Origin: Trypanosoma brucei
Taxonomy: Eukaryota
Length of the DNA: 64,000 bases
Direction of reading: 5' to 3'
Assembly (NCBI GenBank): GCA_000002445.1
Contig: CM000208.1
Coordinates: 640,001-704,000 of the forward strand
The position numbers are program-made. Shown in pieces: positions 11,801 through 17,087 of the stretch (within the stretch, counting starts at the first letter, position 1; every line of letters begins with the position of its first letter).

Positions 11801-14800
11801 AAATTCAATAAACTTTGGTTTCGGTACGCGAATACGTTTAAATCAAATATGTGCATATATTAATAATACTAATATGGCCTATTTTAACTCTTAAAATCAT
11901 GTGGATTTTTTTTTTTTGAAGTACCTCACGAAGTTTCGTTCAAAGTCCCTCCTGAAATATCCCCGACGCTAGCGAGGAGGAGGGGGAGTGGTAAAGTTTG
12001 AAGAATGTGTAGGACGTGCTTTCTATTTTTTCATGTGTTATTTGTTTGCGGCATTCGCATGAGTTAACATCACTGCTACTATTTTTCCCCCTTCTACTGC
12101 TTTAATAACCGCTGACTATGTTCTTCCCCACTGGGTTTGCTGCGGTGCGGGTAAGTAAAGTTGCGAATAAAAAACGGAGCGGGTTGGTGAGTTTACACCT
12201 GTGTGCGCATATTGATTATATGCGTGGTGGTCTGCATTTTTTCTTTTTTTTGCTCTGTAGTCTCTCTTTCGTTCCGATGATTGGAGGAGTTGTTGGCGTG
12301 GTGTACGACAATCCACAGCGATAATGACTCTCGTTCGCTCCGCTGCCCCTCTCCCTGCCCTGTGTTACCACACCCTCCTCCAAGGTAATCACGGACTTTG
12401 GCATGTCTCTGACTTAGAATGGCATTTGAAGTAACACCTTGGTAGCCACTGGTTTGCTGTTGTTGTGGAGACCCAATAGGAGGGATCTTTTCCTTTCTAA
12501 TGTCTGCCTCCGTTTTTTTTCTTTCTGCGGATGCCAATTTTGTGGAGGTGTGGCAGGGTTTTTTTTTCCTGGATAAGCTTTCCTGTATAAGCAAGATGAA
12601 TACTGTGCGAGTTATACTGCATACCTCACTAGACACCTATTCTCGTTGCAGGTATTATAACATTTACATTGATTTGCTTCATTTCGGTAGCTAAACGTAA
12701 GGGGTTGAGTAGGAAACTTTAAATGGACCTACCCATCGAACTGCTTCTGGGGAGTGCACCAGAAAGGCAGCGATACCTGCGGGCGGTGCATATCCTCTTC
12801 AACAGCGTCGGTGATGCACTGAAAGCAAACGCTCGCCAGCAACTTCTCATGGCCACAGCGAATGATTTGACGCGAGGTCTGAGCGTAGCCGATTTCTGTC
12901 AGTTTCGCAGGAAGTGTTTCGAAAATGAGGACTGGTGTAAGTGTGTATACCCACTTCTCGAGCAAGATGAGAACGTTGTTGCTGATCGGGCGGAAGCGGC
13001 AGTGCAGGAGGCGCTTTCGGCTGTCAGATTCCCCGGAGGTGGAGAGAGCAGCACCGAACCTGTTCTGGTCTTTTTATCGACTTCAAAGAGGAGCCGTTCG
13101 GAAATAGCGGAGGAATTTGAAATACCGGGAAAACTGAGGTTAGCAGAAGTTTTTGCCAATGTGGGTGATTACGGGGCAATGTATGACACCCTCACGCATC
13201 TCTTTGTTCCCTTGCAGTCCGGCCTCCAACTAACGGCACGTTCGCACAGGTTACCACTTTTGCTCCTTCAGCTACAAGTAATCAAAAGAACCACAGAACT
13301 GTGGCTCGGAGCTGGAAACGTGGAAGCCGTACGTGGCTACGTGGGGGAATCAACTAGTACTGTGTTAACCGATGCAGTACAAGCCATAGCGGTTGAAAAC
13401 GGGAGCGGTTCTGTATACTTTCCGAGTCATCAAGTTACTGTAGAAGCGGTAACGGACGAGATAGAGCAACTGCTACTGTTTTTTTCCATTGTTCGCGCCC
13501 TCTGTCTCTTTGAAAGTGGTGATTTTTGTGGGTTTGTGTGTTCTTTTACACCTGAAGGCCTACGAGGGACAAACTGGGCTCAGGCGGCTGGAGATATGCT
13601 TGTAGAACGGGGTGCGACACAAGTCGCAGCATCTTTTGGAGGGCGCATTAGCAGACCTGGTGTACTTCCTGTCATTCATAATCTGCGACGTGTTGTGGAG
13701 GAGAGCGTTACAACAGGGGTGCAGCTGGGTGCCATGCTCTTGCTTTCCGCCGTTGCGACACGACCACGCGCGGAGGCAATGGAGCTTGTAACGCGTATAG
13801 ATATTATGCAACTCTGGGAAGATATACCCGAAGCTCACACGCTCGTTCACGCTCTACAACAGGCGAACTTTGCAGACGCCCTTCACGCAGCATCAGTGCT
13901 CGCATTCGTGTACCTAAAGACCGACTTGTTTGCTTATAAGCACTGCGAATGTTTATTATATCAGTATAAACAAACTGTTATAATGAGATACGTTAGCTGT
14001 TTCATCAGCCTTGACTTAAAAAGGGCTGCTATGCATCTGTCAATCCCTCTTCGGGAGTTGGTACACATTGTGCGAGAGCTGATAGAGAAGGAACACATTT
14101 CAGCGAAGATAGACCTTGTGGCGTATATGCTAGTGAGTGCGGACGCGTTTTCACCAACTGACACTGCAGCAACTGACAGGAATCTACTTTTTGATTGCAT
14201 TAACCGCAGCAGAAAATGCGCCGAGGAACTCGAACAGTCGTTACGTCTTTTGTCCGCACAACGGGATAATGCCTCATCTGGGGTGGAGTTTGGACCATAA
14301 GCGCGCGGCCGCATGCTCTCCCACTGCGTGCAAACGTTAAGTCGAATCACAGATCATTTTTGCGGTGCATGCCCTTCTTATTCTCTAATTGGAGGTATTT
14401 GTTTCTGGTTTATTTATTTCTTCATAATTTTCCACTAACCCCATTCCATATTTTTTTGCCCACTAGGTGCCGTGCAAGAGGTATTTACCGTACCATCGTT
14501 CTTTGCGCCTGCAACCCGCCTATACGAATATATGGGTCCGAAAACTCAGGAGGCGCGACCACCTCTACCCGGAACGCCGATGCCACCAATCGATCCCATC
14601 TTTGCAATCACGGGCCCCAGTGCTGGCGTGCTGCATGTCAACACAGCAGACCTGCTCCCAGATCAAAGAAACAAGCTTGATGACAACATTTCCCGCGCCA
14701 TTAGTGACTGCTTGAAATCAGTGGTTGTTCCTCTAGATCGATATTGGAGGGCGGCATCACAGCACCACACCTTACTCTGCTCCACTTCTGAGGATGGTGC

Positions 14801-17087
14801 TGTGGATAGTTCCAACACTGAGGGTGCTACCCCGTCGCACTGGCCAGCGGCAGAAAGAATACCAGATCCGGAAAATATTCCGTACACATTCTACAGCACA
14901 AGGATGGAAGCCATCATTCGACGGAGCTACCAGAAGGACCGCGGTGAGGTTCTCGTTGCCGCCGACGTGCGCAGTGGAAACAGTGGAAAGATTTTCAACA
15001 CTCTCCGTCGACGGGAGATCGCGTCCTTTGTGAACGCGATTCCTCTTGTACCGCAACGAAATCTTTATGTGATGATCGATAAAGACGCCGCAGTTGACCC
15101 TTTTTTCGATATAGACTGCAGCCCACCGTTTGAGTGGTTGAATTTTCCCACCGAAGTTGCGGAGGGTGAAAATTTACCTTCAAATGGAAGTCGCGCTAAA
15201 GATTCCTCCTCACAGCCCCCAGTGCACATTGACACAGCGGTTGTTGAACGGTGTCTCCTGCAGATCTTGCAGTACTTACGGGATGTAGTTGAGGAGTACG
15301 CGGGTGCGAAGTTGGAGCATTGCTTGGTGCTAACGGGTTCAGTTCTTGTGAGTGAATCTAGTGTTGGACCCTCAGCGCACACCGGGGCGACCAGACGGCA
15401 TAATCTGCTCAGCAGCAAAGACACCAAACTGAGCTTCCATGTTCATTTCCGTTTGGAGAAAAATGTTGTATTCAGTAACATCCGAGAACTCCACAAATTC
15501 ATGATGAAGATTAGAGGTGGTATAGATGATTCTTTCAATAAGGCGGGGGACCGTGAGACCCGCTCATTTTACCACATGTTGCAGTGTTGCATTGACTTCG
15601 GAGTGTACTCGCGCTGGAGAGCCTTCAGATTGCCGTATAATGTAAAAGCTTCTTCGGACGGTTTGAACACCATGAACGCGGCGAGTTTCAACTCCGCGAT
15701 TGACGCCGCGACGAAGTCACCTTTTAGAACGGCTTTGATACCAAATCTTAGCGTAGGTGAGGCTTCCCATTCCATCGTGCATGAAATTGATTTGAGCACT
15801 CTGCAGGACTCACTCTTGTACTTTGAACCCACAAAGAAGCAGCAAGAACATCATGCTTTACTCACCAAATTGTTTGGTGTTTTCAGATTCTTACTTCCTG
15901 TTGTGCCCAAAGTAACAGCCATAGGAAACGCTGAACTTGCTAAATTCTTGTTGGCTCACCAGCCCCCCTTTCCACCCACTGAGGAATCCGTCAACCCATC
16001 TTACAGGGATGATCTAGCGCGAGTAGTGTTCGAACTGGCTCTGATTCAGCGGGATGCCAGTAATTTGATGAATGAAGGTGATGACAAAAACACATTTAAC
16101 TTCATCATGTGGAGTGATTCCGCAGAGGATGAGCGGGATAACGCACTCATCCAGGGTCCCTTCGGCATTAACCGGCCACCTTTGCGTGATGGGGCGCGTG
16201 CGCCAGTTCGTGATAGCCGGATTAAGAAATTGATAGCTGAAGTTTTTCACTGTTTGTCTCCTGCTTTTGGTGGTGGTTTGAAAAGCAATTTACAAGCTCA
16301 ATCATCGGACATCTTGCGTCAAAGTGGCTCCTACATAACGGCGGATTCGCTCAGTGTGGATTATCAGGATGGCGTACGTTTCTATTATGTACGTCAAAAG
16401 TCGTCCAAGTTTTGCATTAGGTTGGGCCGTGAGCATCGATCGACTTACCCTCAGCTCTACCTGACCTACGGATCTATTAAAATTCGTTGTTACAGCAACG
16501 ATTGCTCTGGCAAGTGCCACTGTTTGAAATGGTCTCCAAACGACAATGAGCGGATTTGTGGCAGCTCTGCGGTGCTGCTGTCTGTGGATGACAACGGTTA
16601 TCCAAAGTACGACCGTTTAGCGGAGATCCGTGACCTTCTTTTCCCACCGCTGTCGCAGGAGGAGCTTATAAGGCGCTATGGCATTACTTCAGTAGCATCG
16701 GGAGATGAAGATATCGTCCAACAGTGGTGAAGGTGGTTTAGGTTTGTATTGGTGGTTGTGTGCAACAAGTAGTGTGTTTCACAACCCCCCCCCTTCCCTT
16801 CCCTTCCCTTCCCTTCCCTCGTGTTACACCTCGGTTTGGGTTGCGCAGTTGTTGAATGATTTTTGACTGTGGTTCCTAACGCATTTTTGCACTGAGGCAG
16901 TAATAAAGGGAAGTTAGAGGGCGCCACAGTTGGGTAATCGGAGTTCATTGATCTCATTTGGAATTTTTGTTGATTGTATCCACTGTGAACAACTTATCCT
17001 GTCGTGTCCATCAGATTCTTCCGTTTGACGTGTTTTTGAGTGGTCTTTTCTCTCCTTTTCCTCCTCGCCATTACATGTTTTGACGTT

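Follow-up and report, generated by a model that had tools for sequence, protein, structure and literature searches.

PrimPol-like protein 2 of Trypanosoma brucei: gene, catalytic motifs and UL52-type finger

Identity of the gene and its coding sequence

We analyzed a stretch of 64,000 nucleotides of Trypanosoma brucei DNA (GenBank assembly GCA_000002445.1, contig CM000208.1, positions 640,001 to 704,000 of the forward strand), which is referred to below as the window. An open reading frame (ORF) on its plus strand had been described in an initial annotation, from motifs alone, as a primase-polymerase of the PrimPol type. This ORF is the PPL2 gene of T. brucei, and the window carries the reference allele of strain TREU927. 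In an exact-sequence look-up, the 732-aa translation agreed at 732 of 732 residues with EAN77677.1, XP_822505.1 and UniRef100_Q38BZ3. The Q38BZ3 entry has the title "PrimPol-like protein 2", T. brucei brucei TREU927. The top homolog was "PrimPol-like protein 2 [Trypanosoma equiperdum]", with 100% identity and coverage. Among the 29 matches of the homolog search, every named one came from a kinetoplastid. The orthologs from Trypanosoma were 43-46% identical to PPL2, and those of the Leishmania, Leptomonas and Crithidia type 32-36%. The gene was named TbPPL2 (Tb927.10.2520) by Rudd et al. in 2013 (PMC3898837). PPL2 is therefore already known: it was named, purified, mutated and knocked down in that year and is annotated in UniProt. 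The comparison with the described trypanosomatid PPL proteins thus led to PPL2 itself, and we found no differences from the protein of Rudd et al. (PMC3898837).

The ORF had been listed as starting at 14472. It does exist in that form, but its coding start is 14532. The codon at 14472 is GTG, which is a start only in the bacterial code (table 11). The first ATG of the ORF, 20 codons further on at 14532, opens the translation of 732 aa. We rejected 14472 as the start codon because the annotated protein starts with the ATG and the published residue numbers are counted from it as well. Counted from there, the published D193A/D195A mutations fall on the invariant DxD of motif I, which confirmed the start codon. 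The in-frame extension before the ATG is most likely 5′ untranslated region (UTR) rather than coding sequence. Just upstream, a pyrimidine-rich tract ending in AG could be read directly from the DNA. Given how trypanosomatid mRNAs are processed, it is a candidate trans-splice acceptor region. The features of the locus are given below; conservation was scored over 27 kinetoplastid ortholog sequences, and confidence in the predicted structure is given as pLDDT (predicted local distance difference test).

About 14398..14466, + strand: pyrimidine-rich tract ending in AG, candidate trans-splice acceptor region
14472..16730, + strand: ORF as first listed, 752 codons in a table 11 ORF listing
14472..14531, + strand: in-frame extension with a GTG start, probable 5′ UTR
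14532..16730, + strand: PPL2 coding sequence (Tb927.10.2520), 732 aa and stop, from the exact protein match and the orthologs
14532..14846, + strand: N-terminal region, aa 1-105, pLDDT below 50 at aa 1-46 and 63-105, mean ortholog identity 27%
14847..15656, + strand: AEP catalytic domain, about aa 106-375
15102..15122, + strand: motif I, FFDIDCS, aa 191-197
15108-15110 and 15114-15116, + strand: codons of the predicted metal-binding residues D193 and D195
15123..15233, + strand: variable loop 1, aa 198-234, a gap in the hhalign alignment, pLDDT below 50 at aa 206-229, ortholog identity 12%
15336..15425, + strand: variable loop 2, aa 269-298, an hhalign gap before motif II, pLDDT below 50 at aa 278-290, ortholog identity 21%
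15432..15449, + strand: motif II, SFHVHF, aa 301-306
15591..15656, + strand: motif III, IDFGVYSRWRAFRLPYNVKASS, aa 354-375
15657..16331, + strand: middle region, aa 376-600, kinetoplastid-specific, with a partly helical predicted fold, mean identity 30%
16410..16523, + strand: UL52-type finger region, FCIRLGREHRS...IRCYSNDCSGKCHC, aa 627-664, putative ligands invariant in the orthologs
16596..16682, + strand: conserved C-terminal tail, aa 689-717, GYPKY.RL..IR..LFPPL..EEL.RRYG

Sequence searches, predicted structure and motifs

Sequence methods had a poor yield for PPL2. A Pfam scan gave a single match, Herpes_UL52 at aa 622-659, whose score of 13.4 bits (E = 0.075) fell short of the cut-off of 21. 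The same family was matched at E < 1 in 17 of the 27 orthologs, with a best E of 0.0067. PrimPol was not found among the PDB sequences, either by phmmer with the protein or by hmmsearch with the 27-sequence family profile. This is in keeping with the published identity of about 11% between PPL2 and human PrimPol.

When 1.84 billion representative sequences were searched with the family profile, 75 matches were obtained, the weaker of which covered only motifs II-III or only the finger. Several of them form a bridge to PrimPol. The match P0085 had E = 3.1e-5 to the PPL2 profile and E = 2.3e-10 to human PrimPol 5L2X; in a small local search, P0089, P0088 and P0071 matched the human fragment 106-212 at 1e-9 to 5e-12. 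At the C-terminal end, P0078 aligned with the PPL2 finger region (profile positions 614-656, E = 6.7e-7) and scored 32.3 bits with Pfam Herpes_UL52, above the threshold. In hhalign, the PPL2 family aligned with A2, an alignment of 11 PrimPol-like sequences, with a probability of 99.9% and E = 8e-33 over aa 136-384 of PPL2. P0074, a distant match spanning the whole AEP region, had no PDB match. Most distant matches had no Pfam domain because Pfam contains no model of the PrimPol AEP core. A search with profile hidden Markov models, which had been proposed as a check, yielded next to nothing by itself: Pfam returned only the sub-threshold UL52 match and the PDB profile search no PrimPol. The relationship was recovered only by transitive searches and structure.

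Four strong matches to the PPL2 profile, P0030 and P0033-P0035, were very long (1503-1702 aa), and P0033-P0035 had 7-8 matched stretches each. Fusion of a PPL2 homolog to other domains, or its interruption by large inserts, may account for this.

An AlphaFold2 model of the full-length protein was built with a 27-sequence alignment. It had a mean pLDDT of 71.6 and a predicted TM-score (pTM) of 0.62, with 86-98 in the catalytic core and 82-88 in the finger region. Six segments were predicted to be disordered: aa 1-46, 63-105, 206-229, 278-290, 530-553 and 583-599. In a Foldseek search of the PDB, the ten best matches were all human PrimPol (E = 7e-9 to 2.4e-7, target TM-score about 0.6, 15-18% identity). 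They were followed by UL52 of herpes simplex virus (HSV), E5/D5 of monkeypox virus (MPXV), the PrimPol of African swine fever virus (ASFV) and human PriS. Scores of the fold comparison were as follows.

Human PrimPol 7jk1_A: 20.0 (239 of 269 residues aligned, root-mean-square deviation 3.4 A)
MPXV E5 AEP domain: 14.5
HSV UL52: 12.8
ASFV C962R: 10.1
PriS: 8.5
LigD polymerase: 7.8

On this model, the ranking is that expected of a member of the clade that unites PrimPol with the AEPs of herpesviruses and nucleocytoplasmic large DNA viruses (NCLDV). The predicted structure has the AEP catalytic fold, and its nearest AEP relative is PrimPol. Together with the bridging alignments, the fold searches bear out the original call of a PrimPol-like AEP with motifs I-III and a UL52-type Cys/His finger, and the proposed check by structure prediction gave human PrimPol as the best match.

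All of the strings on which that call was based (FFDIDCS, SFHVHF, motif III and the Cys/His cluster) were found in frame at the places given for them. Both Asp of motif I (D193, D195), S301, F302, H303 and H305 of motif II, and D355, Y359, R363, R366 and K372 of motif III were invariant in the orthologs. Chaining two alignments, PPL2 to A2 by hhalign and then P0085 to human PrimPol, placed D193, D195, S301, H303 and D355 at human D114, E116, S167, H169 and D280. Within motif III, the positional counterparts of R363, R366 and K372 are human R288, R291 and K297. The motif III string given for human PrimPol in the initial annotation, VDLGVYTRNRNFRLYKSSK, is real and represents residues 279-297 of the PDB sequence of that protein. 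It had been described as nearly identical to that of PPL2, but a count over the two strings found only 10 of 19 positions alike, so the motifs are similar and no more. Motif I was DxD in all 27 orthologs, and the DxE variant of PrimPol was found in none of them. Rudd et al. noted this departure from PrimPol (PMC3898837). Several distant PrimPol-like matches also have DxD (the A2 consensus is LYFDxD). The difference is therefore a variable trait and does not exclude PPL2 from the family.

The putative zinc-binding finger has the pattern C628-x6-H635-x17-C653-x4-C658, a Cys-His-Cys-Cys (CHC2) arrangement of the UL52 type located C-terminally, as in PrimPol. All four positions, and C662 as well, were invariant in the orthologs. 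In human PrimPol, the finger ligands are C419-x6-H426-x19-C446-x4-C451; the PDB chains of the human protein end at about residue 354. A stand-alone AlphaFold model of the C-terminal 165 aa (finger and tail) had a mean pLDDT of 53, below the value for the same region in the full-length model, and was not used for the fold search.

Compared with PrimPol-like sequences, PPL2 carries two insertions, loops 1 and 2 of 37 and 30 aa, which lie between motifs I and II. No other part of the protein is so poorly conserved. The loops had been described as long low-complexity insertions between the catalytic motifs. The insertions exist, but that description is overstated: their entropy was 3.4-3.8 bits. 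We therefore rejected low-complexity sequence and regard them as variable disordered loops. The spacing is 110 aa between motifs I and II (55 in human PrimPol) and 52 aa between motifs II and III (111 in human PrimPol). Larger kinetoplastid-specific parts are the N-terminal 105 aa and the 225-aa middle region between the AEP domain and the finger. The latter reached pLDDT 90-96 in some 10-residue blocks and contained several confidently predicted helices. It had no Pfam match, and its only PDB profile match, ScpA, was not significant (E = 0.26). In the C-terminal tail, G689 (at least 90% of the orthologs), P691, R695, L696, L703, F704, P705, L707, E711, L712, Y716 and G717 were invariant, and AlphaFold2 predicted two helices, 693-703 and 709-716. 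No known family matched aa 689-717. The tail is possibly a partner-binding motif. Human PrimPol has RPA-binding motifs at the corresponding position.

Neighboring genes and repeats

All 23 large non-overlapping ORFs of the window lie on the plus strand, and the cumulative GC skew climbs steadily. This indicates that the window belongs to one polycistronic transcription unit, of the kind usual in trypanosomatids, on T. brucei chromosome 10. Among the neighbors of PPL2 are CLPTM1, G6PD, a PCI-domain protein, two adenylate kinases, two malate dehydrogenase-like genes and a GH38 mannosidase. The adenylate kinase genes stand in tandem just downstream of PPL2 (17223-17891 and 19912-20601). The second has diverged far more (ADK 80 bits, against 185 for the first) but has kept the lid domain. 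They are followed by tandem genes of the malate/lactate dehydrogenase family, the highly divergent 20876-21949 (Ldh_1_N 46 bits) and the canonical 22390-23346 (150 bits). No Pfam family was matched at E<=0.001 by the ORFs at 2841-5699, 10728-11792, 31889-33643 and 43528-47109 (952, 354, 584 and 1193 aa).

A (TG)24 microsatellite occupies 17088-17137, between PPL2 and the first adenylate kinase. The (TG)n run gives rise to a spurious minus-strand ORF with "THTHTH" at 16914-17306. Other intergenic microsatellites are (GT)18 at 5812-5847 and (TTTTTTTC)4.5 at 23770-23805. The AT skew was positive (+0.15) at 40001-46000, where IFT81 and the ORF of 1193 aa with no known family lie, and negative in most of the remaining window.

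Function of PPL2 and its place among PrimPols

The biochemistry of PPL2 was described by Rudd et al. (PMC3898837). The recombinant protein extended DNA primers with deoxynucleoside triphosphates (dNTPs), and the D193A/D195A mutation abolished this activity. At a T-T 6-4 photoproduct, it both inserted nucleotides and extended past the lesion in an error-prone manner. At a cyclobutane pyrimidine dimer (CPD), it extended from A-A placed opposite; 8-oxoguanine was bypassed, one nucleotide was inserted opposite 3-deaza-3-methyladenine, and abasic sites blocked the enzyme. In cells, PPL2 was nuclear, mainly in G2, and essential, and it relocated to damage foci after treatment with methyl methanesulfonate (MMS). 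RNA interference (RNAi) against PPL2 caused arrest at 4n with gammaH2A and Rad51 foci. A genome-wide RNAi screen again showed the G2/M enrichment on knockdown (PMC9464253). Rudd et al. proposed that PPL2 fills post-replicative gaps and named base J, oxidative damage and structured DNA as possible natural lesions (PMC3898837).

Taken as a whole, the locus is very probably best explained as PPL2, an AEP protein with a UL52-type finger that acts as a DNA-templated translesion DNA polymerase at replication-blocking lesions and has been proposed to fill gaps after replication. The enzyme has two modules, an N-terminal AEP-fold catalytic domain and a C-terminal putative zinc finger of the UL52 type (Cys-His-Cys-Cys). 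D193 and D195 of motif I and D355 of motif III, the last as third metal ligand, would hold the two catalytic metals. The incoming dNTP would be held by S301 and H303 of motif II together with R363, R366 and K372. In the cell, PPL2 may fill post-replicative single-strand gaps opposite endogenous lesions or hard-to-copy DNA. Part of this filling may take place at telomeres, where PolIE and the TRF/TIF2/TelAP complex are recovered together with PPL2 (PMC11649696).

Several points weigh against this explanation. The direct evidence for the family is weak, with a UL52 match below the Pfam threshold and PDB sequence searches that did not return PrimPol. The hhalign score is not independent, because A2 was drawn from the matches of the PPL2 profile itself. 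The correspondence with the human residues comes from chained alignments and not from an inspected three-dimensional superposition. In that chain, the motif III step from P0085 to human PrimPol is not significant alone (domain E about 2e2), although it is in register and P0089 matches the human fragment well. Finally, both the filling of gaps and a part played at telomeres are inferred. The failed searches might imply that the motifs are a chance resemblance and that the protein is not an AEP. This has almost no probability in our opinion. It is refuted by the polymerase assays (PMC3898837), by the fold searches and by the hhalign match to PrimPol-like sequences; moreover, kinetoplastid orthologs were found at E = 0 to 1e-74 and the motif residues were invariant in 27 sequences.

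Two other interpretations concern what the enzyme does. PPL2 might be a true primase-polymerase that lets replication resume by repriming downstream of lesions, as human PrimPol does, if priming needs a cofactor or a template context absent from the published assays. According to the excerpt of PMC4027207, the UL52-type finger of human PrimPol is needed for priming and dispensable for polymerase activity; the invariance of the finger in kinetoplastids indicates selection on this module, and the AEP core is nearest to that of human PrimPol. However, PPL2 made no primers with d(TCC) repeats, with homopolymers or with a mixed 97-mer as template, in assays in which PPL1 did prime, and the arrest on knockdown follows bulk DNA synthesis instead of occurring in S phase (PMC3898837). 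We consider repriming quite improbable. Its essential job might instead be telomere-specific, with PolIE in the TRF/TIF2/TelAP complex: it would fill in the C-strand or help to replicate telomeric or base-J-rich repeats, and would not fill gaps throughout the genome. A PTP-PPL2 pull-down recovered only PolIE from bloodstream-form lysate, and TRF, TIF2, TelAP1-3 and PolIE from procyclic lysate (PMC11649696). On the other hand, depletion of PPL2 left variant surface glycoprotein (VSG) expression unchanged, unlike that of PolIE (PMC11649696), and after MMS the protein goes to general nuclear damage foci (PMC3898837). The PPL2 papers considered here describe no phenotype of telomere length or of overhangs. 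An exclusively telomeric job thus seems unlikely, and we prefer to regard PPL2 as a translesion polymerase that may fill gaps more widely.

Because the assays found no priming, the literature classes PPL2 as "PrimPol-like" and, functionally, as a translesion polymerase. For the same reason, "primase-polymerase", the term used in the initial annotation, is correct as the name of a family but not as a demonstrated function: PPL2 has polymerase and translesion activity and no primase activity in vitro, and its motif I is DxD, not DxE.

Compared with human PrimPol (CCDC111; 5L2X, 7JK1), which has DxE in motif I, PPL2 differs in its DxD, in the absence of detectable primase activity and in an overall identity of only about 11% (PMC3898837). 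It also has the two extra variable loops between motifs I and II, a shorter spacer between motifs II and III, the 105-aa N-terminal extension and the 225-aa kinetoplastid-specific middle region. PPL2 is essential for proliferation, whereas vertebrate PrimPol knockout cell lines are described as viable in excerpts of PMC4889237 and PMC6486543. The second T. brucei protein, PPL1 (Tb927.5.4070), resembles PPL2 in family, domain plan, translesion activity and lesion spectrum (PMC3898837). Unlike PPL2, PPL1 is dispensable, carries DxE and can prime with both RNA and DNA; the two share only about 10% identity (PMC3898837). Herpesvirus UL52, poxvirus D5/E5 and ASFV C962R, from the NCLDV-herpesvirus clade of AEPs, are helicase-coupled primases. 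PPL2 has neither a helicase partner domain nor demonstrated priming.

A divergent AEP, only about 11% identical to human PrimPol, could thus be recognized from motifs in raw sequence alone. Standard sequence searches of Pfam and the PDB would miss PPL2 or leave it below threshold, and structure prediction together with transitive profile searches confirmed it. It is puzzling that a polymerase with no detectable priming keeps an invariant primase-type finger and the conserved regions aa 376-600 and 689-717. There is a small chance that the finger, the 225-aa middle region and the tail were adapted to bring the polymerase to single-stranded, telomeric or base-J DNA, or to position it there, through PolIE or the TRF complex, or that they support cofactor-dependent priming missed in 2013. 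If either is true, PPL2 would be a mechanistically distinct branch of PrimPol, and not a PrimPol that simply lacks priming. As an essential and parasite-specific polymerase, PPL2 is also a possible drug target.

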